Positions 40,401 through 55,597 of a DNA stretch of 64,000 bases are shown here, piece after piece. Source of the stretch: Anaerolineae bacterium (GTDB taxonomy: Bacteria > Chloroflexota > Anaerolineae > CG2-30-64-16); assembly GCA_038214535.1 (NCBI GenBank), contig JBBQRS010000003.1, positions 16,459-80,458 of the forward strand. The letters run 5' to 3'. The notes below the pieces were generated by a model that saw only the letters and a list, made by a program, of their open reading frames with translations, was not told the DNA's origin and ran no database searches. How positions within the stretch are numbered: the stretch's first letter is position 1; each line of letters starts with the position of its first letter. The translations under genes and the position numbers were made by a program.

Positions 40401-41738
40401 ATGGATCAGCAACAATCCTCCGAATCCGCAAATTCAGCCCTCGCGGCGCTCATCGAATCGGCCCAACGCCTGGGCGTCGAACTGGATGAAGCCGATGCCT
40501 TGCAATGGCTGACGGCCATTAGCGCATGGAAACCGGGCGACGCGCTGTCGGTTAATGATGAACTCGGCGTTTTTGGTCATCAGGTTGTCATGCTCGACTT
40601 CAACCCCGCGGAACTGGCCTATTTTCGGGAACTGGCGCGCGTGGTGGCGATTGACGATCAACCCGGCGTTATCGAGACGGCGATTGCACTGTCCGGTTCG
40701 GCGGCCCAGTCGAAAATCCAGACCTACCCCGGCGACTGCGACTTCTTCCAACGGGTGAACATTATCGCGCCGACGCGTCAGGAGGCGTGTCGCATTCTGG
40801 CGCAGGCGATGCGCGACAAGGCGTTGCAGGCAATGCGGGGTCGCACCTACCAACTCATCGAGGTGAAGTTCGGCTCGTATCCGCAAGACCTGGTGGTGGG
40901 CGATAAACTGATGAAGGCCGGTTCGCCGATTGCGTGGGGCGTCGGTGAGCTACGCGCCGGCCAGATCAACGCCTTCCTGCCCGATGATTCGCCCTATGCG
41001 TTGCAGTGGGATGATGTGGCCGATGACCCCGGTTGGTGCAAGCTGGATTGGGTCGTTGCCGATCCGCAGCGCAGCCGGTTGGCGAACGCCAGCAATATGC
41101 TGGATGTTACGTGGGAAGCGCCGGACGGCAGCATCACGCCGCTGGATGGCTACCTTGACCCCTACTTCCAGGAGGTCTATCTCGAAGCGGACTCGATTCC
41201 CATCTTCAGCAAGCTCTCCCGGCACGTTTCGGCTGATGCCCTCGACGATTACGTCGCGGCGCTCCAACGTGAAGTCCGCAAATATGTGACGAAAGACGTG
41301 AACTACGGCAAGGCGGCCAAGCGGATGTACAACGTCTTCCGGTTGACGGGGCGCTATCCCGAAGCGGCGTTCATCCGCGAGCTGTTCGACGAACCGGCGA
41401 CCATGCTTTACCAGGTTTGGTCTTTGATCCGCACCGTGGATGATTGGTACGAGACAGGTTCGAGCATTTCGCTGGAGATTGTTCTCCAGCAGACCGATCA
41501 ACTGATCCTATCGGTGATCAAGGCGCTGGAGGGCGAAGCGGAAGAGGAGATCGTTGAGGATCTGCTCCATTTCCGCGATATTCTGGTGCGTCACGGCAGC
41601 GACGAGTCGCTGACCGCGGAGGCCGAAGGCGCGCGCCAGCGGATCATCAACCTGGTGAACAACTTCTTTTATGAGCGATTGACCGCGTTGCCGCAGATTA
41701 AGCAGTACATGGAAGATATTTCAGCGGATCACGCTTGA
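40401..41738 (+). CDS. hypothetical protein with candidate Pol-beta-superfamily nucleotidyltransferase core (hG[GS]...DxD) plus large helical C-terminal domain
   Basis: AIALSGSAAQSKIQTYPGDCDFFQRVNI matches hG[GS]-x(9-13)-[DE]h[DE]h; candidate third acidic residue in QLIEVKF; 446 aa; its stop overlaps the ATG of the next gene (TGATG at 41736-41740). Confidence 0.4.
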   Translation: MDQQQSSESANSALAALIESAQRLGVELDEADALQWLTAISAWKPGDALSVNDELGVFGHQVVMLDFNPAELAYFRELARVVAIDDQPGVIETAIALSGSAAQSKIQTYPGDCDFFQRVNIIAPTRQEACRILAQAMRDKALQAMRGRTYQLIEVKFGSYPQDLVVGDKLMKAGSPIAWGVGELRAGQINAFLPDDSPYALQWDDVADDPGWCKLDWVVADPQRSRLANASNMLDVTWEAPDGSITPLDGYLDPYFQEVYLEADSIPIFSKLSRHVSADALDDYVAALQREVRKYVTKDVNYGKAAKRMYNVFRLTGRYPEAAFIRELFDEPATMLYQVWSLIRTVDDWYETGSSISLEIVLQQTDQLILSVIKALEGEAEEEIVEDLLHFRDILVRHGSDESLTAEAEGARQRIINLVNNFFYERLTALPQIKQYMEDISADHA

Positions 41739-44700
41739 TGACGGCGGCGGATGGCCTGCTTGTCGGCGAGGCTGTAAGCGAGGTCAAGCACCGGCGGGCC
41801 GGGGGTGAGGGCGTGCGTCGGGTTGTGCGGCGGCTGTTGGATACGTTGCTGATCCTTGCCGCCATTGTTTATCTTACCCAGTTCCTTCTTATCCTGGCCG
41901 CGCTGGGACGCGAGCGTCAGCCTGCCTCGTTCGTTCAGGTCGCCGGGCAGGCCCTGACGCAAAGCCTCGATTACGTCTTCCGGCATCCCCAGACTTACCT
42001 CTGGCACAAAGTCGAAACCGGCTCGTTTAACCTCGTCCTCACGACCTTCAGTCACAGCATTGGCCTGCTTTTATTATCCCTCGCCATCGCGACGGTGAGC
42101 GGCTGGGCGCTGGGGCTGCTGATGGCGCTGAGGCAGCGGCGCGCCGGTTCGATGTTCATCTTCACGCTCACCGTCCTGGGTACCTCGACTCCCAGCTTTC
42201 TGCTCGCGATGTTGCTCTGGATCATCAACATCCGGGTACACAACCGCTTTGACGTGCCCGCGCTGCCGCCCACCGGCTTCGGCTGGGACGCGCACCTGAT
42301 CATGCCCGCGCTGGTGTTGGCTGCCCGCCCGCTCGCGCAGATCGCCCAGGTGACGTATGTGCAGGTGTCGCAGGCGTTGGGGCAAGATTTCATCCGCACG
42401 GCGCACGCCAAGGGCCTCTCGGCGCGGATGGTGCGCGATCGCCACGCCATTCCCAACATTATTGCGCCGGTGCTCACCACCGTCGGCACGTCGCTGCGCT
42501 ATTCGCTTTCGAGCCTGCCGGTCGTCGAGTACTTCTTCCTGTGGCCGGGCGTTGGCTTGCTGATTTTGCAAGCCATTGACGCAGATATGCCGACGCTGGT
42601 GACCGATTCGATCGTCTGCCTCGGGCTGTTCTTTCTCGTCGTTAACTTGCTGCTGGATCTGGCGCTGCCCCTGCTGGACCCACGCCTGCGCGATACGTCT
42701 TCCAATCGCGTGGGCGTGGAAGGGATGGGGCTAAACGGGCTGAAAGAGGGCCTTGTCGGCATCTTCAACCGACAGAGGACGCGCGGCGAGACGTTGCCGC
42801 CGCTGCCCCGTTCTACGGTGAGCCGTGCGCTGCTTGAAGCCGGGGAACCGGCGGCCACTGCGCGCGCGACCTGGGCCTTCAAGGGCCTGGCGAGTAACTT
42901 ACCGCTGCTGATCGGCGGCGCGCTGGTAGTCGGCATGATTCTCGTGGGGATCTTCGCGCCCCGCCTGACCGCCGCCAATCCCTACCAGAGTCACGGCGTG
43001 ATGACGATTGACGGCGTGATCGGCGCGCCGCCATATCCGCCTTCGGACACCTTCCCGTGGGGCACGGATCATATCGGGCGCGACGTGCAGGCGTTGGTGT
43101 TGTATGGCGCGCGGCAAACGCTGCTGCTGGCCTTCTTCGGGATGCTTGCGCGCCTGGTTCTTGGGTCTATGCTGGGGGCCGTGGCCGGGTGGCAGCAGGG
43201 CGGACGGTTCGACCGGCTGGTGATGGGGGCGACGAACGTCTGGGCGGCGTTTCCCACTACGATTTTTGCGCTCCTGCTCATCCAGGGGTTGGGTATCCAG
43301 CAGGGGATGTGGGTTTTCGTCGTGGCGCTTTGTGTCGTGGGCTGGGGCGAGGTCGCGCAGACGGTGCGGCAACAGGTGATCCATATCAAGCCGCAGCTCT
43401 TCATCGAGGCCGCGCGTTCGATCGGCGCGCGGGCGTCGCGTACCCTGGCCCAACACGTTATGCCCGGTTTGTTGCCGATGTTGATCGTGCTCGGTGTGTT
43501 GGAGATGGGCGGCATCCTGATGCTGCTGGCCGAGCTCGGTTTTCTGAACACCTTCCTGGGCGGTGGATTCCGCGTGGAAATCGGCGAGGTCGGGCAGATG
43601 CAGCCGATTGTCGCCTATTTCTCCGACATTCCGGAATGGGGCGCGATGCTGGCGAACGTGCGCCAATGGTGGCGCAGCTACCCATGGATGGCGTGGTATC
43701 CGGGGGCGGCGTTCTTTCTGGCGATCCTCAGCTTTAATCTGTTTGGCGAAGGGCTGCGGCGCTTTTTCGAGCGCAGCCGGATTAATCTGGGCCGGCTCTT
43801 TGGCCGCTACGCGCTGCCCGGCGCAGTCGCCGCGACTTTGCTGCTCGTATGGCTGCTGCGCAGCGCGACGCCCCTGGCCGATTATCAGGGTTACGCGGAA
43901 TCGTTTGACGCGCAGCATGTTTTGCATGACGTCGAGACGCTGGCCTCCGCGGAGTACGGCGGTCGCGAGACGGGCACGCCGGGCGCAGAGCAGACCGTCC
44001 GATTCATCGCCGAACGGATGGCGGAGATCGGTCTGTTCCCTGCCGGCGACTCGACGCCGACCAAAGATCAGAATCCCTTCATTCAAACGCAGATTGTGGA
44101 GCGGCCTCGCCTGACCGGTGTGCCACAACTGACGATTGAAGGCGACCCCGGTGAGGCGCTGATTTACCGGGAGGACTTTGTCGAGCGGCCCGTTTCAATG
44201 CAGGAACGCGCGCAGGGCGTCGTGGTCGGCGTGGCGCTTGGCCCCGAACCGTCCGGCAGGCTCACCGATCCGTATGGGCTGGGGCGGCAAGACCTGCTCG
44301 ACAAGGTGCTGATCGTGCCGGAGGAGAACCTCGCTCGCCTGAAAACCAGTGTGCCGTCGGCGATTCTGGTGATTACACAGGACTCGCTGATGCTTGAACG
44401 GAGATTCCTGTTTCCCGGCGCTTTTGGGCGTGGAAAAACGCCTCCGCAAATGTACATCTCGCCGGAGACGTCGGATCGCCTGCTTCAGACGACGGGGACC
44501 AGCCTGGCAGAGTTCGAGAATGCCGCCGCCCAACTCGGGCCGGGCGAAGCGGTTGTGACCGGTGACGGGGTTTCGGTGACGCTGGAGATTCCGCTGTCTG
44601 CGCCGGATGGGGGCGAAACGCCTACCGTGGAATATTACAACATCATCGGGTTTATCCCCGGCAGCGGCGCGGAAATGCAAACCGAGACCGGCGCGAGCAT

Positions 44701-45298
44701 GGATAGCCAGGTTATCGTGGTTAGCGCGTATTACGATGGCCTGGGCATCGGCCCGGATGGGACGTTCTATCCTGGCGCGAATGACAACGCCAGCGGCATC
44801 GCCACGCTGTTGGAACTGGCGCGCTTGATGAAAGAGAGCCCATATCAACCCAAACGGACAATCGTGTTTGTGGCCTGGGCAGGCGGCGAGCGCAACGAAG
44901 CGCTGAGTGTGACGAGCATCATGAGCGCGAAGGTCGGGTTCAGCGGGTTGAACGTGGAGACCGTGATGGAACTGAGCGGCGTCGGCGCGGGCGACGGCAA
45001 GGCGGTGGCCTTCGGTGAAGGGAGCAGCTATCGTCTGGTGCAGCTTTACCAGAAAGCAGCGGCGCGCCTGGGGGTCGAGACGACGACGCGGGGGCGAGGC
45101 CCACACTACGCGATGCCTGACACGATGGCCTTCGGCGGCCGCGATGCGCTCTCGCTCCACGTCAGTTGGGACGGCTCCGACCGGACCGCGCACACGCCCG
45201 ATGACGCGATAGCGGCGATTGACATCGAGAAGCTGCGACAGATCGGCCAGTCGGCCATGCTCACATTAAGCGTGCTCAGCCGCGAGCCCACATATTAG
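41738..45298 (+). CDS. fusion protein: OppB/DppB-like ABC permease domain + OppC/DppC-like ABC permease domain + extra TM helix + M28-family zinc-peptidase-like domain with PA-like insert
   Basis: EAA-region AHAKGLSARMVRDRHAIPN and C-terminal LLDPRLR (OppB-like); PWGTDHIGRDVQALVLYGARQT and second EAA region (OppC-like); hydrophobic YALPGAVAATLLLVWLL after the permease; C-terminal SAYYDGLGIGPDGTFYPGANDNASGIATLLELAR...WAGGER...HTPDDAIAAIDIEKL (M28-like). Confidence 0.7.
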   Translation: MTAADGLLVGEAVSEVKHRRAGGEGVRRVVRRLLDTLLILAAIVYLTQFLLILAALGRERQPASFVQVAGQALTQSLDYVFRHPQTYLWHKVETGSFNLVLTTFSHSIGLLLLSLAIATVSGWALGLLMALRQRRAGSMFIFTLTVLGTSTPSFLLAMLLWIINIRVHNRFDVPALPPTGFGWDAHLIMPALVLAARPLAQIAQVTYVQVSQALGQDFIRTAHAKGLSARMVRDRHAIPNIIAPVLTTVGTSLRYSLSSLPVVEYFFLWPGVGLLILQAIDADMPTLVTDSIVCLGLFFLVVNLLLDLALPLLDPRLRDTSSNRVGVEGMGLNGLKEGLVGIFNRQRTRGETLPPLPRSTVSRALLEAGEPAATARATWAFKGLASNLPLLIGGALVVGMILVGIFAPRLTAANPYQSHGVMTIDGVIGAPPYPPSDTFPWGTDHIGRDVQALVLYGARQTLLLAFFGMLARLVLGSMLGAVAGWQQGGRFDRLVMGATNVWAAFPTTIFALLLIQGLGIQQGMWVFVVALCVVGWGEVAQTVRQQVIHIKPQLFIEAARSIGARASRTLAQHVMPGLLPMLIVLGVLEMGGILMLLAELGFLNTFLGGGFRVEIGEVGQMQPIVAYFSDIPEWGAMLANVRQWWRSYPWMAWYPGAAFFLAILSFNLFGEGLRRFFERSRINLGRLFGRYALPGAVAATLLLVWLLRSATPLADYQGYAESFDAQHVLHDVETLASAEYGGRETGTPGAEQTVRFIAERMAEIGLFPAGDSTPTKDQNPFIQTQIVERPRLTGVPQLTIEGDPGEALIYREDFVERPVSMQERAQGVVVGVALGPEPSGRLTDPYGLGRQDLLDKVLIVPEENLARLKTSVPSAILVITQDSLMLERRFLFPGAFGRGKTPPQMYISPETSDRLLQTTGTSLAEFENAAAQLGPGEAVVTGDGVSVTLEIPLSAPDGGETPTVEYYNIIGFIPGSGAEMQTETGASMDSQVIVVSAYYDGLGIGPDGTFYPGANDNASGIATLLELARLMKESPYQPKRTIVFVAWAGGERNEALSVTSIMSAKVGFSGLNVETVMELSGVGAGDGKAVAFGEGSSYRLVQLYQKAAARLGVETTTRGRGPHYAMPDTMAFGGRDALSLHVSWDGSDRTAHTPDDAIAAIDIEKLRQIGQSAMLTLSVLSREPTY

Positions 45299-45299
45299 A

Positions 45300-45380: not shown

Positions 45381-47141
45381 TTACGGCGACGGCAGCCGCC
45401 AATACTGGAATTGCGGGGCGCCGAACGCCGGATACTCAAACGTGACGCCGGACTTGACCAGCAGCGTCCGATCATAGAATTGCAACGGCGCGACCACGGC
45501 CGCTTCATTGAGCAGGAGGCGTTCGGCCTCGCGGTACAATTCGGTGCGCGCCGCCTCATCGGTTTCGACGCGTGCCTTCAGCATCAACTCCTCGTAGGCG
45601 GGTGACTCCCAACCCGTATACTGGAAAGCGGAGCGCGGGCTGAAAACAACGTCCAGGAGGCTTGACGGATCGGCGTAGTCCATTACCCAGCCCATGCGAT
45701 AAAGGTTATAGGAGCATTGGGCGGGCGAACTCGCGGCGCTTCGATTGGGGGCATTGCAGGCATCCAGCGTGTTCCGATGCACGTCCCAACTGCTGCTGAC
45801 CAGACGCACCGGGATGCCGACCTCTTCCAGCATCCCTGCAATCGCCTTAAACAGCAATTCATTGTTTCCTTCCCGGTTGTACCATAGCTCGACCGGCGGC
45901 GGGTTCTTCTCGTTGAAGCCGGCCAGCGCCAGGAACTCGCGCGCCTTTTGCAGGTCGTAGGCATAACCGACTGACGGGTCATCACCCTGAAAGCCGACAA
46001 TCCCCGGCGGCACGACGACCTGCGCAGACACGTGCCACGGTTGTTCGAGCACGTTCGCGATGAGCGCGTCGCGATCAATGGCGCTGACGATGGCGCGCCG
46101 GACGTTGACATCCAGCGTGGGGGTGATCTGCGTGTTGATGCCCAGATAACTGGTCCCCGGCTGCACCAGCACCTGTAGCTCCTGGGCGAACGTCGGGTCG
46201 GCCTGGATGCGTGGGGTCTGCTCGGCGGGGAACTGCGCGACATAGAAATCGCCTGCTTCGTAACGGCTCAACTGCTCGGCGGCGTCAGGGACCAACGGGA
46301 ATTCGATGCGCTCGATGGTCACGGCGTCAGCGTTCCAGTAGTTGGGGTTTTTCACCAGGGTCAGCCCTTCGCCGGGCGTCCATTGATCCAGAAGGTAGGG
46401 GCCGTTGGTGATCCGGCCGGGTTCACCCAGGTCGGCGCGGTAGGGCAGGAAGGCGCGAAACGCCAGCAGGCCGGGGAGGAAGCTCGCCGGGCGTTCCAGT
46501 GTAATGGTGAGCGTGCGTTCATCGGCGGCCTTGAACCCCACCGTGTTACAGTCGGCTACGTCGCCGGCAGCGAAATCGTGCGCCCCGGTGATCGCCAGCA
46601 CCTCGGTCAGCAGATAGTAATAGCTGTTGCCGGTCGTTGGTTCCAACAGGCGACATAAGCCGTCCACGTAATTCTGGGCGGTGAGCGGCGCGCCGTCCGA
46701 CCATGTGACGCCGGAGCGCAACGTGACGGTGTAGGTCTGGCTGTCGGGTGAAACGGTGTACTCTGTGGCGGCCGCAGGTTCGATCGCGCCGTCGCCGCGC
46801 AGATGGAACAGGCCCTCGTAGAGTTGTTCGACCACCAACCCCGCCGTCTCGTCTACCGCCTTCTGCGGGTCCAGCGACGCGGGCGCGGCCGTCAGGGGAT
46901 ACACCAGGGTTCCGGCCGGCGCGTTGATCCGGGAGACGTATATGGGCGTCGGTACGGGAGTGGCGGTGACGACCACCGTCACTTCGACAGACTGCGTTTC
47001 CACCACCACCTGCGTCTGCATCACGGGTACTTCGACTGTGACCGGCGCCGTTGCCGTTTCAGGGTCAGAGCCACACGCCGCAAGCAGCAGGGCGGCCGCG
47101 AACAGCCATATTCCCACAAATCCTCTGACCTTTGTCACCAC
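45381..47141 (-). CDS. ABC transporter substrate-binding lipoprotein, family 5 (OppA/DppA-like), paralog 3
   Basis: Signal peptide plus lipobox LLLAACGS, Pro/Thr/Val linker, SBP_bac_5-like body; GTG start with AGGAGG RBS. Confidence 0.8.
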   Translation of the reverse strand: MVTKVRGFVGIWLFAAALLLAACGSDPETATAPVTVEVPVMQTQVVVETQSVEVTVVVTATPVPTPIYVSRINAPAGTLVYPLTAAPASLDPQKAVDETAGLVVEQLYEGLFHLRGDGAIEPAAATEYTVSPDSQTYTVTLRSGVTWSDGAPLTAQNYVDGLCRLLEPTTGNSYYYLLTEVLAITGAHDFAAGDVADCNTVGFKAADERTLTITLERPASFLPGLLAFRAFLPYRADLGEPGRITNGPYLLDQWTPGEGLTLVKNPNYWNADAVTIERIEFPLVPDAAEQLSRYEAGDFYVAQFPAEQTPRIQADPTFAQELQVLVQPGTSYLGINTQITPTLDVNVRRAIVSAIDRDALIANVLEQPWHVSAQVVVPPGIVGFQGDDPSVGYAYDLQKAREFLALAGFNEKNPPPVELWYNREGNNELLFKAIAGMLEEVGIPVRLVSSSWDVHRNTLDACNAPNRSAASSPAQCSYNLYRMGWVMDYADPSSLLDVVFSPRSAFQYTGWESPAYEELMLKARVETDEAARTELYREAERLLLNEAAVVAPLQFYDRTLLVKSGVTFEYPAFGAPQFQYWRLPSP

Positions 47142-47300
47142 ATTGCCTCCTGGCCTCGCGACATTATTCTACAGCAGAATAGCATAAACTGACTGACTGG
47201 AAAAGAGACGCCGGGCTGAGCGGGCAGGTTCCCCCGCCCATACAGCCCGGCGTCAGGAGCCGGTTTGTTCTAAGCAAACCGGCTCCGCGTCTTCAGGACT

Positions 47301-49127
47301 CTATTCGATGACCCACTTTTCGTATTGATCGTAGCCGGTGATCGAGACCAGGCTCCGCACGTTCGGGCGTACCAGCCGCGGGCTGCGATACCAGTAGAGC
47401 GGCGCAATGACTGCCTCATCCTCTATCAGGATCTTCTCGGCATCAGCGTAGAGCGCCATGCGCTTCACCGGGTCAGTTTCGAGGGCTGCTTGCTGCCAGA
47501 GCGCATCATAAGCGTCGCTTTGCCAGTCAACAACATCCGCATACCCACCGCCCTTGCCGAAGACGTCCGCCGTGAAGTTGTTGGCGTCAGGATAGTCTTG
47601 CACCCAACTGCCGCGGTAGATGTTCTCGTTGCCTTCCCGACGTTGCGTCAGGTAGACTTTCCACTCCTGGTTGGACAGTTTGGCGTCGATCCCCAGGACG
47701 TCTTTCCACATCCCTTGAATCGCCTCGGCGCGTTGCTGATGTGACTCGGAGGTGTTGAACATCAGCGTTACCTGGACCTGATCCGCTGTGATGCCCTTCT
47801 CCGTCAGATATTCATCCAGAAGGGCTTTTGCCCCTTCGGGGTCATACTTGACGCCCAGATCGGGGTAACTTTCTTCCTGCGGTGAACCCGCAGCACCGGG
47901 ATGTGAGAACCACTGCGCCGGCAGGCCGCTGCCCTTGTTGACGTTATCTACCAGCGATTTGCGATCAATCGCCATGGACAGCGCCTTGCGCACGCGTGCG
48001 TCATCCGTGGGGGCTTTCTGCGTATTGAAGGCGTAGAACTCGGTACCGATGGTGTACGTGAAGTCCACCATATCCTTATACTCCGGATCGGTGGTCATGC
48101 GGTCCATGTCGCCTGAGGGAATGCCGGACACATCCAGATTTCCCGCTTCGAACTCCGCCAGCCCCGGGCTGGCGTCCAACATCACCCAGCGAAGTTCATC
48201 AATTGTGGCCTGCGGCGCGGATTCGATCCCGGGCCAGAACGGATTCTTAATCAGCGAGATGCTGTCGTCGTGGATCCATTCCTTCAGGGTGTAAGGCCCG
48301 TAGCCCTGGTAGAAGCCTTGCTCGGTCCAGCGCTCGCCGCGCGCATCGGTGCAGTCATCGCCATCAATCAGCCAGCTCGGTTGCGCGTGCGCCACCCACA
48401 GGCCCAGGATGTTCAGGTTGTAAATCGCGGGCGAGGTGACTTGGATTTCCAGCGTCCTGGGGTCAATCGCTCTGACGCCGACTTTTGCGGTATCGGTCAC
48501 TGTACCATCGTTAAAATCGGCTGCGCCGACGATGACGGGATTCAAGACATAGGCATAGTCGGAGGCCGTCAGCGGGTCGAGGGTGCGCAGGATGCCGTAG
48601 ACGAAATCGTCGGCTGTGACCATGCGATCGTTGCCGTCGCAATCCTGAACTTTCACCACCTGTCCCGACGCGGCGTCGTATTTGACCCAGGGAACACCCT
48701 CAAGGATAGTGAACGTGTAGGTCAGGCCGTCGTCTGAGACGCTATATTCGGCGGCCATGCCTTTTTCGAGCTGGGCCGTCTCTGCGTTTTGCCGCGTGAG
48801 CCCGACGGTCGCTTCTTCAATAATTTGAACGCTGGCAGCTGCTACGGCCAGCGCCGTGTCAATCGTGGGGATGTCGCCGGGGCCCATGTTCATGCGCAGA
48901 GTCTGGACGCCGGAAGTCGCAGCCACAGGTACAGGCGTAACTTCCACGATCTTTTCGACTTCTTTCTGCACTTCGACGACCTGGGTCTGAACGACTTCAA
49001 CCTGCTTCTCGACGACCTGGGTCACGACCTTTTCGACGACCTGCGGAGCAGGCGCCGCGCAGCCGGATACGATCAGGGCTGCGAGCAACAACACGGAACC
49101 GAACTGCAAGAGTCTGTGATGTTTCAT
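47301..49127 (-). CDS. ABC transporter substrate-binding lipoprotein, family 5, paralog 2
   Basis: MKHHRLLQFGSVLLLAALIVSGCAAP lipoprotein signal, repetitive VVEK/VVQTQVVEVQKEVEKIVEVT linker, OppA-like body; start at internal ATG 49127. Confidence 0.8.
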   Translation of the reverse strand: MKHHRLLQFGSVLLLAALIVSGCAAPAPQVVEKVVTQVVEKQVEVVQTQVVEVQKEVEKIVEVTPVPVAATSGVQTLRMNMGPGDIPTIDTALAVAAASVQIIEEATVGLTRQNAETAQLEKGMAAEYSVSDDGLTYTFTILEGVPWVKYDAASGQVVKVQDCDGNDRMVTADDFVYGILRTLDPLTASDYAYVLNPVIVGAADFNDGTVTDTAKVGVRAIDPRTLEIQVTSPAIYNLNILGLWVAHAQPSWLIDGDDCTDARGERWTEQGFYQGYGPYTLKEWIHDDSISLIKNPFWPGIESAPQATIDELRWVMLDASPGLAEFEAGNLDVSGIPSGDMDRMTTDPEYKDMVDFTYTIGTEFYAFNTQKAPTDDARVRKALSMAIDRKSLVDNVNKGSGLPAQWFSHPGAAGSPQEESYPDLGVKYDPEGAKALLDEYLTEKGITADQVQVTLMFNTSESHQQRAEAIQGMWKDVLGIDAKLSNQEWKVYLTQRREGNENIYRGSWVQDYPDANNFTADVFGKGGGYADVVDWQSDAYDALWQQAALETDPVKRMALYADAEKILIEDEAVIAPLYWYRSPRLVRPNVRSLVSITGYDQYEKWVIE

Positions 49128-49280
49128 CGTTTCTCCTTCTCCTTTATGTGAAATAGTTGGCTGACGGTTGATATGACAACTGCCTGATGGTCGCAATCGC
49201 ACTTACCGACAGGCAGTCGGCAGAGGTTTGGCTTGCATCCACCAGGCAGTCATCTTTGGGCCTTATGGAGGGGGTATGGC

Positions 49281-50300
49281 TTACTGCGTGCCGCGCATCC
49301 GCGGGTCGAGTGCGTCGCGCAAGCCATCGCCCAGGAAGTTGAACGCGAACATGGTGATCGCCAGCGCCAGGGCCGGGAAGACTGTTTGATTCGGATACGT
49401 GCGCACCACGCGCGAGCCGTCCGAGATCATCGAACCCCAGGAAGGCGTGGGCGGGTTGACGCCCAGACCGATGAAGGACAGGAATGCCTCCGTGGTGATG
49501 TATGCCGGAATGGCGAGCGTTTCAGCGACGATCAGGGGGCCGAGGATGTTGGGCAGGATGTGCTTGAACATGATGCGCACATGGCCCGCGCCGATGGTGC
49601 GCGCCGCCTCGATGTACTCTTTCTGGCGCACCGACAACACCTGCCCACGGGTCAACCGGGCCATCGTCTCCCACGCCGTCAAGCCAATGCCGACAAAGAT
49701 AAACAACAGACCGCCCATCTTCGCGTCTATGGCGTTGACTTGATACAAGAATGTGCCTGGGTCCGGTTTCGAGCCGCGAAAGAAGGCCATCAACAGGATG
49801 ATGAATAGCAGGCTGGGGAAACCGTAGAGCACATCTACGATACGCATCATGATGTTATCAACGCGTCCCCCGGCATACCCCGAAATGCTGCCGAATACCA
49901 CCCCGATCATCAAGCTGAGGAGCGGGCCGATCAGCGCGACGGTCAGCGAGACGCGCGCACCATAGACAATGCGACTGTAAAGGTCACGCCCCACGTAATC
50001 TGCGCCCAACGGGTACGCGTTGCTGATCTTGGCGTAGCCTTGCATGCTGGGGAAAACGGTCAGCATCCACTGTGGGACCTTGTTGTTATCTACTAGCGTC
50101 TGATCGGCATACGGCTTGAGTGCGAAGACGGGAGCAAAAATCGCCATCGTCGCGAGGATCGCGATGGTGATCAGGCCCAGGACGGCCGCTTTGTTCTTGA
50201 AAAGACGCCGGATGGCATCCCGCCAGAGGCTTTCACTTTTACGCGTCGGTGAGAGACCTCCCGCAATTGTTGTGGTCGCTGCTTGTGATTCAACCGCCAC
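49281..50300 (-). CDS. peptide ABC transporter permease, OppC/DppC-like
   Basis: N-terminal OppC_N-like region, ADYVGRDLYSRIVYGARVSL motif, EAA region. Confidence 0.85.
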   Translation of the reverse strand: MAVESQAATTTIAGGLSPTRKSESLWRDAIRRLFKNKAAVLGLITIAILATMAIFAPVFALKPYADQTLVDNNKVPQWMLTVFPSMQGYAKISNAYPLGADYVGRDLYSRIVYGARVSLTVALIGPLLSLMIGVVFGSISGYAGGRVDNIMMRIVDVLYGFPSLLFIILLMAFFRGSKPDPGTFLYQVNAIDAKMGGLLFIFVGIGLTAWETMARLTRGQVLSVRQKEYIEAARTIGAGHVRIMFKHILPNILGPLIVAETLAIPAYITTEAFLSFIGLGVNPPTPSWGSMISDGSRVVRTYPNQTVFPALALAITMFAFNFLGDGLRDALDPRMRGTQ

Positions 50301-50315
50301 AGTGGCCTCCTGAGG

Positions 50316-51374
50316 TTAAGTATACCTGATCCGAGGATCGAGGAATGCGTACATGATATCCACCACCAGGTTCGCAAGCACCAGAAACACCGCGAAGAGC
50401 AGGATGGTTCCCATGATGACCGGATAGTCGCGATTGGTGATGCTGGTGACGAAGTACTTGCCCATGCCCGGAATGCCGAAAATCTGCTCGGTAACGAACG
50501 TGCCGGTGAGCAGGGCGGCAAACATCGGCCCCAGGATCGTGATGACGGGGATCATGGAGTTGCGCATGGCGTGTCGGGTGATGACTTTGTTCTCTTTAAG
50601 GCCCTTCGCCCGCGCCGTGCGGATATAGTCTTCGCGGGTCACCTGCAGAAGGCTGGCGCGGGTGAGGCGGGCGATGATGGCGGAGCTGGCCAGCCCTAGA
50701 GCGATCGCCGGCATGATGGCATGTTGGAAGAACGGGATATAGGGCGGGCGCGGGAAGACGCCCAGGATGAACGGCGGTTTGGCTCCCCAACCTGTCGGTG
50801 GCAGCCACTTCAGAGACACGCCGAAGATCCACACCATAATTGGCCCCAGCACGATCACCGGCACGGAGACGCCGAAAATCGCGACGCTCATGCCCAGATA
50901 ATCCCATACGGTGTTCTGGCGCAACGCCGAAAGGATGCCCAGCGGCAGGCCGATCAGTAAAGCCACGGCAAGCGCCAGGCTGCCAAGCTGGATCGAAATG
51001 GGCAATTGCTGCTTGAAAATATCGTTGACGGTGCGGCTACGCGAGGCGTATGAGGGGCCAAAGTTCATCCACTTCAGCCAGCGGCCTTCGCCGACGGGGA
51101 TATTGAAAAGAAAATCGTCGCGCAGCGAAGTGCCCGGCGGGACGCTGGATATACGCGGGATCAGAATGTCGTAGACATAGCGCCCATACTGCATGGGGAG
51201 GGGTTCATCAAGATGATACCGCTCTTCGAGGTTCTTCTTGATTTCTTCCGGCACCGGTTTTTCTTTATCAAACGGGCCGCCGGGAACTGCGTGCATCAAC
51301 CCAAACGTGATCATGGAAATCACCATGATCACCAGGAGGTTCCACAGCATACGGCGAATCATGTAATTGACCAT
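50316..51374 (-). CDS. peptide ABC transporter permease, OppB/DppB-like
   Basis: MVNYMIRRMLWNLLVIMVISMITF N-terminus, long first periplasmic loop, EAA motif ARAKGLKENKVITRHAMRN, C-terminal FLDPRIRYT. Confidence 0.85.
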   Translation of the reverse strand: MVNYMIRRMLWNLLVIMVISMITFGLMHAVPGGPFDKEKPVPEEIKKNLEERYHLDEPLPMQYGRYVYDILIPRISSVPPGTSLRDDFLFNIPVGEGRWLKWMNFGPSYASRSRTVNDIFKQQLPISIQLGSLALAVALLIGLPLGILSALRQNTVWDYLGMSVAIFGVSVPVIVLGPIMVWIFGVSLKWLPPTGWGAKPPFILGVFPRPPYIPFFQHAIMPAIALGLASSAIIARLTRASLLQVTREDYIRTARAKGLKENKVITRHAMRNSMIPVITILGPMFAALLTGTFVTEQIFGIPGMGKYFVTSITNRDYPVIMGTILLFAVFLVLANLVVDIMYAFLDPRIRYT

Positions 51375-51528
51375 TCTGAAAATCCTGTTTGAATCGGTTC
51401 AGACTCGGCGTGGCAAATGCCTGGCCAATCTGAAGGTTTTAGAATCTCGGACGGCTTTATTATTGTGAAGCCGTCCGAAATTGGAGTAACCTGGGGAGAA
51501 GGCTCTCCCCAGGTTCACAGTCGCTAGA

Positions 51529-53367
51529 CTACTTGATGTCCCACTTGTTGTACGCTTGCTTGCCGCCGAGGACGGAGAAGGTCCGCTCGATGTTCGGCTT
51601 GGTCACGGCAACAGAGGTGTACCAGTAGATCGGGGCGATCACGGCATCGGTCTTGACGAACAGTTCTTCTGCGTCGGCGTACATTTGCACGCGCTTCGCC
51701 GGGTCCTGCTCGCGGGCCGCAGCCACGACCATCTCTTCGAAGGTCGGGTTGTCATAGTTCACGCCGCCGCCTTCCGCCGTGTTGGCCGAACCGCCCTTGA
51801 CGAAGACCTCACGAATGAAGTTGTTCGCGTCGGGGTAGTCCTGGCACCAGCCGAGGCGGTAGATCTGCGGTGTGTTCTCGGGGTCGCGGATGGTCTTCAG
51901 GTAGACTTGCCATTCCTGGCTGGTTATTTTGACATCCAGGTTCAGGTTGTCTTTCCACATCTGCTGAATCGCTTCCGCGATCTGCTGATGGCCCGAAGAG
52001 GTGTTGAACATCAGGGTGATGTCCAGTTGGTCAAGCGTCAGGCCCTTCTCGTCCAGGTAGGACTGAAGGTCGGCCTTGGCGGCCTCAGGATCGAACTTGA
52101 CGCCCAGGTCGGGGAAGTCGGCGATGGTCGGCGCGCCGGCCAGGCCGGGGCGAGAGAACCACTGCGCGGGTTCCTGGTCGCCCTTCAGGACGTTGTCAAT
52201 CAGGCTCTGGCGGTCAATGGACTGCGAGAGCGCACGGCGCACGCGGGCGTCGTCCACAAACTTGGCTTTGTTGTTGAAGCCGTAGTAGTAAGTGCAGAGG
52301 TTGGGGGAGATGTTCAACTCGGCCGACAGGGTCGGGTCTGCCTTGACGCGCTCGAGGTCCTGGCTTGGCACCGCGGCAACATCCAGGTTGCCCGCTTCGT
52401 ACTCGGCGAAGGCCGGCACGTCGTCCAACATGCTCCAGGTGAGTTGGTCAATCTTGGCTTCCGGCACGGCATCGGTGCCGACGAAGAACGGATTCTTGAC
52501 GAGCGTGATGCTGGCGTCATGGATCCATTCTTTCAGGGTGTATGGGCCGTAGCCCTGGAAGAAACCGGTCTCGGTCCAGCGTTCGCCGCGGGCGTCAGTG
52601 CAGTCGTCGCCCTCGATGATCCACTTGGGTTGCGCGTTCGCGACCCACAGGCCGATGATGTTCGCGTTGAAGGCGGCCGGTTCCTTGAAGGTGACTTCAA
52701 GGGTCGTGGGGTCAATGGCCTTGACGCCGACGGTCGCCGTATCGGTCACGGCGCCGGTGTTGAACTCTTCCGCGCCCTTAACCACGAATGACAGCACGTA
52801 CGCGTAGTCAGAGGCCGTCGCGGGGTTGAGGGTGCGCAGGATGCCATATTCGAAATCTTGCGCGGTGACCATGCGGTCATTGCCGTCGCAGTCCATGACC
52901 TTCTCAACGGAGTCGGTCGTGGAGTTGTACTTCACCCACGGCACGTCGTCGCGCAGGTGGAAGGTGTAGACCGTACCATCATCCGAGATGTCCCAGGTTT
53001 TTGCAATCCCGGGCTTGATTTCGGTGGTGACTTCGTCCTGGAACGTCACACCGCCCATCGTCATGGCGACGATCTGCGTGGATGACGTGTCGGTGGACAA
53101 CGCCGGGTCAATCGTGGGGATGTCGCCGGGGCCCATGTTCAGGTACAAGGTCTTCGGGCCAACGGGCGGCACCGCGGTGACCTCAACGATTTTCTCGACT
53201 TCCTTCTGAACTTCGACGACCTGGGTCTGAACGACCTGTACTTCCTTCTCTACAACCTGAGTCACGATCTTCTCAACGGTCTGCGCGGCCGGGGCAGCAC
53301 AGGCGGTGACGATCATGCTGGCAATCATCAGCAGACTCAGGAAGCTGAACAAGCGCTTCGCGGGCAT
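51529..53367 (-). CDS. ABC transporter substrate-binding lipoprotein, family 5, paralog 1
   Basis: MPAKRLFSFLSLLMIASMIVTACAAP lipoprotein signal, same repetitive linker as paralog 2, OppA-like body; ATG 53367 preceded by GGAGG RBS. Confidence 0.8.
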   Translation of the reverse strand: MPAKRLFSFLSLLMIASMIVTACAAPAAQTVEKIVTQVVEKEVQVVQTQVVEVQKEVEKIVEVTAVPPVGPKTLYLNMGPGDIPTIDPALSTDTSSTQIVAMTMGGVTFQDEVTTEIKPGIAKTWDISDDGTVYTFHLRDDVPWVKYNSTTDSVEKVMDCDGNDRMVTAQDFEYGILRTLNPATASDYAYVLSFVVKGAEEFNTGAVTDTATVGVKAIDPTTLEVTFKEPAAFNANIIGLWVANAQPKWIIEGDDCTDARGERWTETGFFQGYGPYTLKEWIHDASITLVKNPFFVGTDAVPEAKIDQLTWSMLDDVPAFAEYEAGNLDVAAVPSQDLERVKADPTLSAELNISPNLCTYYYGFNNKAKFVDDARVRRALSQSIDRQSLIDNVLKGDQEPAQWFSRPGLAGAPTIADFPDLGVKFDPEAAKADLQSYLDEKGLTLDQLDITLMFNTSSGHQQIAEAIQQMWKDNLNLDVKITSQEWQVYLKTIRDPENTPQIYRLGWCQDYPDANNFIREVFVKGGSANTAEGGGVNYDNPTFEEMVVAAAREQDPAKRVQMYADAEELFVKTDAVIAPIYWYTSVAVTKPNIERTFSVLGGKQAYNKWDIK

Positions 53368-53555
53368 TTTTCTCCTCCTAAAGAGAGAATGTAGGATGGT
53401 TTTCGTTTGCCGGCAGGCTGCCCATACCCCGTGGGGCGGGCGATGGCCGACGCTGACGGGTGAGCGTTGGTTAGAACTTAGCGATTCGGAACACCACCTC
53501 CTCTCCAAAAGCGCCGGCCTGTCTCAGGCCAAATGGTGTTCGTTGCCTGACGCAG

Positions 53556-54593
53556 TTATTCCTGCGGGTACAACCAGCAGGCCACAAAATGTCCCTCGCC
53601 ATAATCCCGGAACGCAGGCTCCCGGTCGTGGCAGACGTCCATAACTTTGGGGCAACGCGTGCTGAAGTTGCACCCCAAGGGTGGATTCACCGGTGAGGGC
53701 ACGTCCCCTTCCAGGATGATGCGTTGGCGCTTTTCCTCAATCACCGGATCCGGGATCGGCACGGCAGAGAGCAACGCTTGCGTGTACGGGTGCATCGGGT
53801 TGCGATACAACTCTTCCCGATCGGCCAATTCCATGATCTTGCCCAGATACATCACGGCGATCCGATCCGAGATGTGACGTACCACCGACAGATCATGGGC
53901 GATGAAGAGATAGGTCAACCCCAGTTGGTCTTGCAAGTCTTCCAACAGGTTGATGACCTGCGCCTGAATGGAGACATCCAGGGCGGAAATCGGCTCGTCG
54001 CACACGATGAAGGACGGATTGACGGCGAGGGCGCGCGCCACGCCAATACGCTGGCGTTGGCCGCCCGAGAACTCGTGCGGGTAGCGGTTAATGAAATAGG
54101 GGTTCAGGCCGACAACCGCCAACAACTCGCGCACACGTTCCAGGCGCTCCGCCTTGGTGCCGATATTATGGACTTCCAGCGGCTCGCCGACGATGTTGCC
54201 CACCGTCATGCGCGGGTTCAGCGACGCATAGGGATCCTGGAAGATCATTTGCATCTCGCGGCGCATGGCGCGCATCTCATCGCTCTTGAGCTTGGTTAAG
54301 TCTGTGCCGTTGTAAATAACCTCGCCGTCCGTGGGCTTATAGAGCTGTAAGATCGCCCGCCCGGTGGTGGATTTGCCACAACCCGATTCGCCCACCAGGC
54401 CGAGCGTTTCGCCCTTGATGATATCAAATGAAATGCCGTCCACGGCCTTCACGTCACCGACGCGACGCTGTAGCAGGCCCCGGTTAATGGGGAACCACAT
54501 GCGCAGATCCTTGACTTGCAGGATCTTGTCGCGGCCGTTCTGTGGCCCGTGAGGGTCCGTATCCGTAACTGTAAGGGCTGGAGTTGAAGTCAC
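53556..54593 (-). CDS. peptide ABC transporter ATP-binding protein (OppF/DppF-like)
   Basis: Walker [10 protein letters not shown], signature [14 protein letters not shown], Walker [14 protein letters not shown]-terminal oligopeptide-transporter extension. Confidence 0.85.
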
Positions 54594-55597
54594 GCTGTTA
54601 TACCTTGTGTTGCCGTTCTCACATCCACCCAGCAGGCCACTTTGTGGCCCGGTGAAACCGGTTCGAGAGCCGGGTTTTCGGTAGCGCAGTGTTCAATCCG
54701 ATAATGGCAACGCGCATAAAATGGGCAACCCACAGGAAGATCAATCAAATCAGGCGGGAGCCCTTCGATGGATGTCAGGCGATGACCGCGTTCTGCATCG
54801 AGGCGCGGGAGAGAACCCAACAGGCCGATGGTATAGGGATGACGCGGATTGGCATACAGGTCTTTGACCGGCGCTTCTTCCACAATAAAACCGGCGTACA
54901 TCACGATGACCCGGTCCGCCAATCCGGCGACGACGCCCAGATCATGCGTAATCCAGATGATCGCCATGCCGATTTCATCGCGCAGCCGGTTCACCAGGTC
55001 GGTGATCTGAGCCTGAATGGTCACATCCAGCGCGGTGGTTGGTTCATCGGCGATGAGCAATTGCGGGTTGCAACTCAGACCCATCGCGATCATCACGCGT
55101 TGGCGCATACCGCCGGAAAACTGATGTGGATAATCGTCGAGGCGGTCAGCCGCATGGGGAATGCCGACCAGCTCCAGAAGCTCGGCGGTGCGCTGCCGCG
55201 CCGCCTCTTTATTCATCCCCATATGCAGCATCAAGGCTTCAGAAATCTGATAGCCGATGGTCAGAACCGGGTTGAGGGAAGTCATCGGATCCTGGAAGAT
55301 CATCGCGATCCGATTCCCGCGCACCTGACGCATTTCCTCGTCCGGCATCGTGATGAGGTTTTTGCGGGCTTCCCCGGCCCCAAACCACACCTCTCCGCCG
55401 GTAATCTTGCCGGGCGGCTGAGGAATGAGGCGCAGAAGTGACATGACGCTGACACTTTTGCCGCAACCGCTTTCCCCAACGATGGCAAGGGTCTCGCCCT
55501 CGTCAACGGTATAGGAAATCCCGTTAACCGCGTGGACAACGCCGTCCTGGGTGAAGAAGCGCGTCTCCAACCCCTTCACCTCGAGCAATCTACTCAT
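54590..55597 (-). CDS. peptide ABC transporter ATP-binding protein (OppD/DppD-like)
   Basis: Walker [11 protein letters not shown], signature [14 protein letters not shown], Walker [13 protein letters not shown]; start placed at internal [10 protein letters not shown] preceded by GGAGGGGAAG RBS (the ORF could extend to 55654). Confidence 0.8.

Follow-up and report, generated by a model that had tools for sequence, protein, structure and literature searches.

What does a single gene do that joins both permease halves of a peptide importer to a peptidase-like domain, and which ATPases would drive it? The gene in question lies on the + strand of a 64,000-nt stretch of an Anaerolineae contig (the window, to which all coordinates refer), and a sequence-only reading had described its product as fused OppB-like and OppC-like permeases followed by an extra transmembrane (TM) helix and an extracytoplasmic M28-like domain with a possibly degenerate active site. 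The prevailing view is that type I ABC importers rely on receptors of the periplasmic-binding-protein fold; if a permease carries a different, enzyme-derived ectodomain, there would be more ways of delivering cargo to these importers.

A complete Opp/Dpp/Nik-type translocator in one chain

The open reading frame is real, beginning at 41735 (TTG) or 41738 (ATG, overlapping the upstream gene's TGA stop as TGATG) and ending at 45298. In its ATG form (41738..45298, + strand, as are all of its features below), it comprises 1,186 aa plus a TAG stop and matches a database protein exactly (P0001; 100% identity, 100% coverage). An artefactual join of separate oppB, oppC, and M28 genes, through misassembly or a frameshift, is refuted, and nothing was found in its support: the frame stays open through all 1,186 codons without interruption; the same architecture recurs in more than 120 full-length orthologue clusters from independent sources, as well as in the isolate genomes of Thermanaerothrix daxensis GNS-1, T. 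solaris 4228-RoL, and Ornatilinea apprima P3M-1; and fused transmembrane domains (TMDs) directly precede the ectodomain at every locus with enough upstream sequence. Matching stretches number 584 across species genomes, and essentially all come from Chloroflexota: the family is large, conserved, and Chloroflexota-specific, and not a one-off oddity. Databases annotate its members only as "ABC transporter permease subunit," and our literature search found no paper on the family.

The gene encodes, in one chain, the complete membrane translocator of a type I ABC importer of the Opp/Dpp/Nik family. Pfam BPD_transp_1 is matched twice (151.2 bits versus a gathering cutoff of 26.4). The Pfam domains of the protein have E values of 3e-44 and 9e-22, which, with the more than 120 orthologue clusters, leave no room for chance. 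An Arg-rich cytoplasmic tail (aa 1 to 36, 41738..41845; placed by hydropathy and AF2, and poorly conserved at 0.23) leads into an OppB/NikB-like half containing TM1 to TM6 (aa 37 to 313, 41846..42676; Pfam, NCBIfam, AF2 helices, and hydropathy). A linker that is cytoplasmic, basic, and modeled with low confidence (aa 314 to 385, 42677..42892; hydropathy, AF2, and conservation) joins it to an OppC/NikC-like half containing TM7 to TM12 (aa 386 to 680, 42893..43777; Pfam, NCBIfam, hydropathy, AF2, and Foldseek). The type of each half follows the NCBIfam models with which it groups: OppB/NikB for aa ~100 to 318 and OppC/NikC for aa ~385 to 677. All 25 listed models (OppB/OppC, NikB/NikC, DppB/DppC, and GsiC/GsiD among them) score far below their equivalog cutoffs, at ~100 to 157 bits against 300 to 480; oligopeptide models score comparably to nickel and metallophore ones, and the top score belongs to Opp4C (156.6 bits versus 350).

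Each half bears an EAA (coupling-helix) loop in the orthologue alignment, as the sequence-only reading had proposed. That of the first half (DFIRTAHAKGL...H.IPN, aa 217 to 245, 42386..42472) reads DFIRTAHAKGLSARMVRDRHAIPN at aa 217 to 240, and that of the second (FIEAARSIGA...H.MP, aa 553 to 582, 43394..43483) includes FIEAARSIGARASRTLAQHVMPG within aa 553 to 577. Among 63 orthologues, the key residues of both loops are invariant or at least 90% conserved, with A222, K225, G226, and H236 of the first loop invariant, and no region of the protein is better conserved than its two TMD halves (0.74 and 0.79). Hydropathy, AF2, and Foldseek agree that each half has six TM helices, both termini in the cytoplasm, and a DppB/DppC fold; Foldseek matches the TMDs to Escherichia coli DppBCDF (8z1w_B; TMt of 0.84, 28% identity), and the full-length AF2 model has a pLDDT of 82 and a pTM of 0.67. 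The extra hydrophobic helix that had been noticed after the second half, YALPGAVAATLLLVWLL at aa 691 to 707, is the core of a 13th TM helix (aa 684 to 709 in AF2, 43787..43864; hydropathy and AF2) running from the cytoplasm to the outside. Hydropathy and the positive-inside rule together give 13 TM helices with the N terminus in and the C terminus out, which places the C-terminal domain outside the membrane, as had been claimed, and not in the cytoplasm.

The ectodomain and its remodeled active site

The ~475-aa domain displayed outside the membrane has a PA+M28 fold, which bears out the earlier assignment to that type. Pfam Peptidase_M28 is matched at aa 987 to 1173 (78 bits versus a cutoff of 21.3), the AF2 model of the ectodomain has a pLDDT of 90.7 and a pTM of 0.91, and its Foldseek matches include PaAP, BSAP, TfR, and GCPII. 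The N-terminal part of the M28 fold, with the conserved motif GRETGTPGA (aa 712 to 795, 43871..44122; AF2, structural match, and conservation), is followed by a PA-like (apical) insert with approximate boundaries (aa ~796 to 962, 44123..44623) and by the homologue of the M28 catalytic core (aa 963 to 1186, 44624..45295; Pfam, HMM alignment, and structure). Evidence for the PA domain, inserted in the M28 fold, is structural, as the Pfam PA model has no match in the protein: the insert is seen in structural matches to 2ek8, BSAP, PaAP, TfR, and GCPII, with 375 of the 412 residues of 2ek8 aligned and the TfR and GCPII alignments extending over ~540 to 600 columns.

We mapped the active site by phmmer and profile (HMM) alignments to Vibrio aminopeptidase 1AMP, taking metal-ligand roles and site numbering from Table 1 of PMC7522609. 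The five co-catalytic M28 ligands (H97, D117, E152, D179, and H256 in 1AMP) read Tyr998, Asp1016, Glu1051, Ser1080, and His1152, an incomplete set in which all three Zn1 ligands are retained and both Zn2-specific ligands, along with the general base, are replaced. Tyr998 stands at the Zn2 ligand His97 (Tyr998-Tyr999-Asp1000, 44729..44737, within SAYYDG at aa 996 to 1001) and is Tyr in 117 of 120 orthologues, with Asp99 kept as Asp1000. The bridging ligand Asp117 is kept as Asp1016 (Asn1015-Asp1016-Asn1017, 44780..44788, invariant in 120/120) in NDNASG (aa 1015 to 1020). In GGER (aa 1049 to 1052), the general base Glu151 has become Gly1050 (Gly in 118 and Ala in 2 of 120 orthologues), followed by the Zn1 ligand Glu152 as Glu1051 and by Arg1052 (Gly1050-Glu1051-Arg1052, 44885..44893). 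Ser1080 occupies the position of the Zn2 ligand Asp179 (Glu1078-Leu1079-Ser1080, 44969..44977; HMM alignment and orthologues), a substitution that the sequence-only reading had overlooked. The Zn1 ligand His256 corresponds to His1152 (45191..45193), which opens HTPDD (aa 1152 to 1156) and is conserved in 113 of 120 orthologues, with Phe in one subclade. Thus, the Tyr-for-His and Gly-for-Glu replacements noticed earlier in SAYYDG and GER were correctly placed, as were the retained NDNASG and HTPDD motifs; the reading's own worry that its alignment by eye might be off was unfounded, since the HMM alignments and 120 orthologues agree.

Other residues of the ectodomain have become fixed as well. 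Arg1052 and Glu1078, the latter two residues upstream of Ser1080 on the same strand, are invariant in 120/120 orthologues, and a family-specific invariant motif, TTRGRGPH (aa 1116 to 1123, 45083..45106; orthologues and conservation), stands at the position of the canonical SDHxPF; the invariant polar set of the ectodomain comprises Asp1000, Asn1015, Asp1016, Asn1017, Arg1052, Glu1078, and the RGRG motif. Conservation within three positions of the former catalytic residues reaches 0.876, the ectodomain maximum; the core outside these stretches stands at 0.728, and the PA insert, the least conserved part, at 0.557. The signature Y-D-D-G-E-R-E-S-H characterizes ~112 of the 120 orthologue clusters (112 TMD-fused domains), and one subclade of eight sequences has YDDGDRESF, in which the His is lost. 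Only 2 of 184 complete signatures in TMD-containing proteins are canonical for M28, and both sit in appended second domains, never in the membrane-proximal one. Because the signature extends over ~112 of 120 clusters and no other part of the ectodomain is as conserved as the pocket, the remodeled site is a fixed derived state and not decay. Judged by its residues, the ectodomain is a conserved pseudo-aminopeptidase.

Candidate ATPases and the role of the fusion

The sequence-only reading had found no ATPase gene on the strand of the fusion gene, and we likewise found no ABC ATPase gene on the + strand nearby and neither a cognate nucleotide-binding domain (NBD) pair nor a substrate-binding protein (SBP) in the gene's own operon. 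Candidate energizing partners are the two OppD/OppF-type ATPases (ABC_tran + oligo_HPY; 53556..55654, − strand) of a convergent opp operon. The rest of this operon (45381..53508, − strand throughout) is of the standard opp/dpp type with SBP_bac_5 proteins and contains SBP5 (51529-53508), OppB (50316-51374), OppC (49281-50300), and two further SBP5 genes (47301-49202 and 45381-47141). At 11 of 69 loci, the fusion gene has the closest relatives of the window's OppD/F (64 to 94% identity, an orthology proxy for "same operon" applied to loci that are phylogenetically related) within ~10 kb. Ectodomain identity across the 11 runs from 41 to 83%, and the opp operon takes three arrangements relative to the fusion gene: convergent, or on the same strand either downstream or upstream of it. 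No opp operon was found near the gene in the other 58 loci, such that the partnership is not obligatorily encoded in cis; in 45 loci, the flanks contain nothing resembling an ABC ATPase gene, and most orthologues stand alone as orphans amid unrelated housekeeping genes (trpA, the his operon, metG, and coaE fusions). Across the family, the fusion gene is never accompanied by an Opp-type ATPase of its own. The suggestion that the convergent opp ATPases are borrowed is, as such, only partly sustained: recurrent adjacency of the same operon in distant relatives is circumstantial support for borrowing, and most orthologues have no ABC partner nearby. ATPases shared between type I importers do have precedent (PMC7658222, PMC4519317).

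Two kinds of variant extend the architecture. Proteins of ~1,680 aa append a canonical PA+M28 domain, with the motifs HYDH, DDNATG, DDEEQG, LDMVG, and HKPGDD, and some distant relatives carry fused NBDs, such as the N-terminal ABC_tran domain of P0155. These NBDs are LolD/MacB-like, not OppD/F-like, and degenerate (P0155 has the signature LTEEQ and Walker B DDP; P0158 lacks Walker A).

The reading we prefer, plausible if a little short of probable, is that of a single-chain Opp-type translocator that would borrow OppD/OppF and capture ligands with a tethered pseudo-aminopeptidase that does not hydrolyze them. That the translocator works is suggested by the TMD halves being the best-conserved regions, by the conserved EAA loops, and by distant relatives with a fused ABC_tran domain; that the former active site is still functional is suggested by its being the conservation peak of the ectodomain. 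The two EAA loops would dock an OppD/OppF-type ATPase heterodimer, here that of the neighboring convergent operon, shared with its own OppB/OppC. The former active site would bind a peptide or amino-acid-like ligand without hydrolysis, and the ectodomain would hold this ligand at the mouth of the translocator, replacing or assisting soluble binding proteins. Chloroflexota are monoderm, and tethering would suit a single-membrane cell, from which an untethered extracellular protein would diffuse off. In some lineages, the appended canonical PA+M28 domain would trim substrates beside the capture domain. Substrate capture by an inactive peptidase, one of the options raised earlier, is favored from the residue pattern because the general-base Glu and both Zn2 ligands have been lost, yet the remodeled pocket is very strongly conserved. 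A bolder version, in which this Opp-type importer needs no classical SBP and relies on borrowed ATPases and on the tethered ex-aminopeptidase as its receptor for peptide or amino-acid termini, seems to us rather doubtful.

Other readings share parts of this evidence. The ectodomain might instead be an active, atypical one-metal enzyme (an aminopeptidase, another hydrolase, or a cyclase) with a site formed by Asp1016, Glu1051, and His1152 and a relocated base, for example, Glu1078, which would trim peptides outside the cell and pass the products straight into its translocator, linking digestion with uptake. In M28-type glutaminyl cyclases and GPAA1, the single zinc is bound by sites 2, 3, and 5, precisely the ligands kept here, and Tyr is able to ligate metals (PMC7522609); the invariance of Glu1078 and Arg1052 and the concentration of the strongest purifying selection of the ectodomain on the pocket also fit. 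We nevertheless regard an active enzyme as unlikely: the general base is replaced throughout the orthologues, and GCPII mutants at the equivalent Glu (E424A and E424M) are deposited as inactive (a PaAP E340A mutant also appears in PDB descriptions, with no activity statement); the His is lost in the YDDGDRESF subclade and other ligands in P0158 (GANKNASG), so what is conserved is not the metal chemistry; and lineages apparently needing activity append a separate canonical M28 domain. Half a metal site, together with the His-to-Tyr change, might also suggest a Nik/Opp1/Cnt-type importer of metals or metallophores, with the remodeled site (Tyr, Asp, Glu, and His plus arginines) as a built-in receptor for a metal or metal chelate, and several top NCBIfam matches are indeed nickel, nickel/cobalt, or staphylopine permeases (Opp2C, NikC, Opp1C, Opp2B, and CntC). 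That such matches fall far under their equivalog cutoffs, with oligopeptide Opp4C on top, that the linked operon is a standard opp/dpp one, that His1152 is not invariant, and that appended second domains are aminopeptidase-like make metal import very improbable.

It is also possible that the protein transports nothing, its permease body being a conformational scaffold or sensor that signals ectodomain occupancy or competes for and regulates OppD/OppF, or else a surface anchor for a protein-binding pseudo-peptidase like TfR or nicalin. The prevalence of orphan genes would be expected on such an account, the degenerate or dead NBDs of distant relatives fit a non-transporting role at least as well as a transporting one, and both TfR and nicalin, non-catalytic M28 homologues, are sequence matches of the ectodomain (TfR, along with glutaminyl cyclases and GPAA1, is a structural match as well). 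The strong conservation of the TMD halves and both EAA loops is unexpected for a mere anchor, however; the conservation maximum lies in the small pocket of the former active site and not on a PA/apical protein-binding surface of the TfR type; and a complete opp operon recurs beside the gene. On balance, a non-transporting role seems improbable to us.

Should the ex-aminopeptidase prove to be a receptor, it would add a new fold, widespread in Chloroflexota, to the receptors of type I ABC import and be a clear instance of an enzyme that became a transport receptor by losing its base and its second metal site. It would also indicate a possible layout of extracellular peptide processing and uptake in monoderm, peptide-scavenging Chloroflexota, which abound in sludge, sediments, and hot springs. 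Hundreds of species possess the family, and its current annotation hides both the pseudo-peptidase domain and the missing ATPase from metabolic reconstructions. The isolates carrying the gene make the question open to experiment.

Comparison with known systems

With Opp/Dpp/Nik (PepT-family) importers such as E. coli DppBCDF (PDB 8z1w), the fusion shares two BPD_transp_1 domains, one of OppB and one of OppC type, an EAA loop in each, and the canonical OppC periplasmic motifs (GTDxxGRD and PxWG...R.YP). Unlike them, it has both halves in one chain along with the 13th TM helix and the ectodomain, has no NBD or SBP gene in its own operon, and has a periplasmic loop between TM1 and TM2 of the OppB-like half that is about half the canonical length, with BPD_transp_1_N undetected. 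GlnPQ has receptor domains fused to its translocator, and the principle proposed here is the same as in GlnPQ and OpuA of Gram-positive bacteria, in which, in a cell with a single membrane, an extracytoplasmic ligand-capture domain is joined covalently to the TMD (PMC8025302); whereas those systems tether a periplasmic-binding-protein fold, the fusion carries a PA+M28 peptidase fold with a putative receptor role.

The NDN(A/G)SG and HTPxD motifs are common to the ectodomain, to PA-domain M28 aminopeptidases (Aneurinibacillus AM-1, 2ek8; Bacillus subtilis BSAP/YwaD, 6hc6; Pseudomonas aeruginosa PaAP, 8ac7), and to the Vibrio/Aeromonas AAP (1amp/1rtq). The ectodomain differs from all of these enzymes in the family-wide replacement of His97 by Tyr, Glu151 by Gly, and Asp179 by Ser, in the new invariant Arg1052, Glu1078, and TTRGRGPH, and in being tethered to the membrane via an ABC permease. 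As an M28 fold with an incomplete ligand set, it resembles the transferrin receptor, nicalin, GPAA1, and glutaminyl cyclases, and in keeping sites 2, 3, and 5 (Asp1016, Glu1051, and His1152), it resembles the one-zinc class (PMC7522609); glutaminyl cyclases, however, keep the general-base Glu next to the ligand Glu, where the fusion has Gly1050. TfR and nicalin are eukaryotic protein-binding modules, and none of these four is fused to a transporter. Finally, the proposed energizing follows the multitask ATPases MsmK and MsiK, in which one NBD set serves several translocators (PMC7658222, PMC4519317); the documented cases of that type are homodimeric sugar-importer (CUT1) ATPases, whereas here an OppD/OppF heterodimer would serve a fused OppBC-like chain.

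A single-chain permease with an external domain

The fusion gene is an unbroken plus-strand reading frame from 41735 (TTG) or 41738 (ATG) to 45298; the gene before it ends in a TGA that shares bases with this ATG (TGATG). The ATG form encodes 1,186 aa and has an identical, full-length counterpart in public databases (cluster P0001), named at NCBI as "ABC transporter permease subunit" and nothing more. Pfam returns two BPD_transp_1 matches (3.4e-44) and Peptidase_M28 at aa 987 to 1173 (8.8e-22); in NCBIfam, aa ~100 to 318 match OppB/NikB-type models and aa ~385 to 677 match OppC/NikC-type models, all with scores of ~100 to 157 bits, far under the equivalog cutoffs (300 to 480), none of which is reached. 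Hydropathy and the positive-inside rule predict 13 transmembrane (TM) helices, six per permease half, with a basic cytoplasmic linker between the halves (aa 314 to 385), a short basic loop after TM12, and a TM13 (hydrophobic core, aa 691 to 707; AlphaFold2 helix H684-709), and this topology therefore places the last 475 residues (ectodomain, aa 712 to 1186) outside the membrane. The full-length AlphaFold2 model, built on a 63-sequence alignment (pLDDT 82, pTM 0.67), contains the same helices as the hydropathy analysis, and the ectodomain modelled alone reaches a pLDDT of 90.7 and a pTM of 0.91. Each half carries an EAA loop, and across 63 orthologues the key residues of both loops are either invariant or conserved to at least 90%. 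Reading frame, Pfam, NCBIfam, and AlphaFold2 thus bear out the sequence-only reading, which had described fused permeases with EAA loops in both halves, an extra helix that puts the C-terminal domain outside, and an M28-like fold for that domain. The protein is an OppBC-type translocator made as a single chain, to which a conserved PA+M28 pseudo-aminopeptidase is attached externally.

The Pfam PA domain has no match in the fusion protein, and the putative PA assignment of the insert (aa ~796 to 962) derives entirely from the predicted structure. A soluble product released by signal-peptide cleavage at TM13 was considered and judged unlikely, as the family consensus shows no visible conserved AxA-type site. 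Base composition (GC content, 0.59 to 0.64) gives no sign of a foreign origin of the region, and a scan of positions 39400 to 45600 recovered no terminators or promoters above shuffled expectation.

The family is widespread: when one genome per species was scanned, at least 584 stretches were confirmed, and all but one of the 79 loci listed belong to Chloroflexota (Anaerolineae, Ardenticatenaceae, Thermanaerothrix, Ornatilinea, Bellilinea, Longilinea, and "Ca. Aquidulcis"), the single exception carrying the label Bacteroidales, probably through a binning error. The closest among the loci listed is L009, with 83% ectodomain identity. Complete or isolate genomes with the fusion include CP070811.1, Thermanaerothrix daxensis GNS-1, T. 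solaris 4228-RoL, and Ornatilinea apprima P3M-1. That the fusion is an artefact is refuted, since the frame is unbroken and the fused permease halves directly precede the ectodomain in all loci with enough upstream sequence. Full-text searches on ABC/Opp systems or Chloroflexota turned up no account of an M28-permease fusion; a paper on Thermoflexus proteolysis mentions M28 and Opp separately, and the fusion is absent from it. The family is therefore one that is already sequenced but uncharacterised. In some genomes, the whole fusion gene has a second copy, in tandem or dispersed (loci L012, L049, and L050; L022 and L032, which share a contig; L083 and L086, which share another).

A remodelled and conserved pocket

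Residues were mapped onto the Vibrio aminopeptidase (1AMP) by phmmer and profile alignments, with the roles of the M28 metal ligands taken as tabulated in PMC7522609. Tyr998 occupies the position of His97 (Zn2 ligand), Gly1050 that of Glu151 (general base), and Ser1080 that of Asp179 (Zn2 ligand); Asp1000, Asp1016, Glu1051, and His1152 correspond to Asp99, Asp117 (bridging ligand), Glu152 (Zn1 ligand), and His256 (Zn1 ligand), respectively. The Zn1 triad is therefore kept; neither of the Zn2-specific ligands remains, nor does the general base. The sequence-only reading of a possibly degenerate site was correct in noting Tyr for His and "GER" for the Glu-Glu motif but overlooked the replacement of Asp179 by Ser1080. 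An FbpA/transferrin-like Tyr-Tyr iron site at Y998-Y999 was rejected because Y999 is simply the usual Tyr of the H-Y-D motif that ordinary M28 enzymes carry, as seen in BSAP and in the second domain of cluster P0073.

These replacements recur across 120 full-length orthologue clusters: Tyr998 is present in 117, Gly1050 in 118, Glu1051 in 114, and Ser1080 and His1152 in 113 each, and Asp1000, Asn1015, Asp1016, Asn1017, Arg1052, and Glu1078 are each found in all 120. When the ectodomain HMM was run on all retrieved proteins, including 150 representatives of an exhaustive search of 1.8 billion proteins, the result was a clean split: domains behind a fused permease displayed the signature Y-D-D-G-E-R-E-S-H (112 exact, the others near variants), and the canonical H-D-D-E-E-x-x-D-H was that of free or multidomain M28 proteins. 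Canonical signatures number only 2 among the 184 complete ones from proteins with a permease, and both lie in appended second domains. Conservation peaks for the ectodomain at positions within three residues of the former catalytic ones (0.876; the remainder of the core scores 0.728 and the PA insert 0.557), and the best-conserved 9-mers are ANDNASG, VSAYYDGLG, TTTRGRGPH, FVAWAGGER, and MELSGVGAG. One subclade has Phe in place of His (YDDGDRESF), and distant fused relatives degrade other positions (e.g., GANKNASG in cluster P0158). Judged by these alignments, the degenerate site is a fixed, selected state, which argues that the pocket is in use, though not for canonical two-zinc hydrolysis. 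The invariant residues are Asp, Asn, Arg, and Glu, all of them polar or charged, and are not the metal triad, suggesting a pocket that may bind its ligand through hydrogen bonds and salt bridges.

Several architectural variants surround this core. In forms of ~1,680 aa, the pseudo-domain is followed by another PA+M28 domain (locus L005, 166 to 5226, cluster P0073; also P0024, P0025, P0096, and others). This second domain is canonical in P0073 and P0025 (HYDH, DDNATG, DDEEQG, LDMVG, and HKPGDD), which ties the family to peptide N-terminal processing; in P0096, P0099, and P0075, it has degenerated along a path of its own, with NDAEEQ and NDVQEQ signatures, and the appended domain seems to decay repeatedly. 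Forms of ~1,425 aa have a dephospho-CoA kinase domain at the N terminus: CoaE (87.6 bits) is joined to the cytoplasmic end in locus L006 (8001 to 12278, cluster P0085) and in ~10 other clusters of one clade, which may be a working fusion or may reflect loss of the stop codon that separated two adjacent genes. In the distant relatives P0155 and P0158, an N-terminal ABC_tran domain precedes the OppB-like and OppC-like parts, the TM helix, and the pseudo-M28 domain. Here, the fused ATPase is LolD/MacB-like and degenerate (in P0155, signature LTEEQ, Walker B DDP, and no H-loop His; in P0158, no Walker A), such that the permease in these proteins would bear a pseudo-ATPase as well as a pseudo-peptidase. 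The search also recovered a family unrelated to the ABC fusion (P0167, P0169, P0156, and P0171; ~1,550 to 2,080 aa) with two M28 domains plus a PA domain and/or a Peptidase_MA_2-like region; its second M28 domain often has the degenerate signature H-D-D-Q-E-x-Q-D-N, and just P0167 and P0169, both ~2,070 aa, begin with the membrane domain DUF418.

ATPase partners and gene neighbourhood

The fusion gene has no nucleotide-binding domain (NBD) of its own, and its strand holds no ATPase or substrate-binding protein (SBP) gene in the window, as already read from the sequence in the case of the ATPase. Convergent to it on the minus strand lies a complete opp operon with two ATPase genes (53556 to 55654), OppD (54590 to 55654) and OppF (53556 to 54593), followed by an SBP gene, OppB, OppC, and two more SBP genes (45381 to 53508). 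All three SBPs of the operon (45381 to 55654) are SBP_bac_5 proteins: by cross-matches in L009, the first (51529 to 53508) and second (47301 to 49202) share ~58% identity, and the third (45381 to 47141), which ends 83 bp from the fusion-gene stop, is ~29% identical to either.

Recurrent linkage to this one operon is the only conserved neighbourhood of the orthologues, whose other neighbours include trpA, the his operon, and metG. The window's Opp proteins were compared with all loci by tblastn, with closest relatives counted as the same operon. Those of OppD/F (64 to 94% identity, a threshold that is a mere proxy for orthology) were located ~10 kb or less from the fusion gene at 11 of the 69 loci, which span 41 to 83% ectodomain identity. 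The operon is convergent in L009, L010, and the window; downstream on the same strand in L011, L012, L013, L016, and L041; upstream on the same strand in L052, L061, and L082; and represented by its ATPases only in L079. By chance, one given operon in a ~5-Mb genome would be expected at <1 to 2% per locus, although the loci are phylogenetically related. The earlier suggestion that convergent opp ATPases are borrowed thus gains from a linkage that recurs in three arrangements but is limited by its presence in just these 11 loci. In locus L008, a 182-aa ORF without a Pfam match (11486 to 12034) sits between the fusion gene, the stop of which its start overlaps, and a same-strand downstream opp operon.

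The upstream 445-aa gene (40401 to 41738, +) was rejected as a conserved partner, being kept at that place in no relatives other than the closest two, L009 and L010. Its product drew no match from Pfam, NCBIfam, PADLOC, or the PDB and contains SGSAAQSKIQTYPGDCDF, which by eye fits the GS-x11-DxD motif of Pol-beta-type nucleotidyltransferases. Before it lies a gene (39706 to 40356, +) for a 216-aa DEDD/RNase T-like protein matched nearly end to end by PADLOC PDLC00753 ("Effector / Exonuclease," E = 6.4e-71); the two could be a defence-like pair, and the trio that they form with the fusion gene is likewise confined to L009 and L010. Elsewhere in the window, the 609-aa GTG ORF given for the exonuclease VII large subunit (61151 to 62980, +) runs ~590 bp into the Na/Ca-exchanger gene before it (60687 to 61739); since its Pfam domains start only at aa 205, translation probably begins well downstream of this GTG.

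Candidate mechanisms and known systems

We favour, tentatively and at a little short of an even chance for the whole, a mechanism in which the fusion protein would dock OppD/OppF through its EAA loops and the tethered ectodomain would capture a peptide or amino-acid-like ligand but not hydrolyse it; interest in the family would be considerably higher were the ectodomain a receptor. ATPases common to several type I importers are documented (PMC7658222 and PMC4519317), and the N-terminal ABC_tran of the distant relatives lends support to an ABC-type assembly. The degeneracy of that same domain keeps alive a role as sensor, regulator, or anchor without transport, which we consider unlikely: the permease halves are the best-conserved regions of the fusion protein (0.74 and 0.79), pointing to a working translocator and away from a mere anchor.

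We regard as just as unlikely an atypical one-metal enzyme with a relocated base. The ectodomain does keep sites 2, 3, and 5 of the one-zinc configuration (PMC7522609); mutants of the equivalent Glu in GCPII (E424A and E424M) are deposited in the PDB as inactive, and the PaAP E340A mutant appears among the same descriptions without a statement on activity. An importer of metals or metallophores is far less probable still.

By fold and sequence, the fusion protein belongs to both parent families, the Opp-type permeases and M28. It departs from M28 peptidases in their defining catalytic features, with two of five ligands and the base replaced, and from self-contained Opp systems in that the fusion gene does not make up such an operon. 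The tethered binding domains of GlnPQ and OpuA (PMC8025302) offer, by analogy, the working principle proposed here; the fusion protein is nevertheless not a member of these SBD-fused importers, because the fold of its ectodomain differs.
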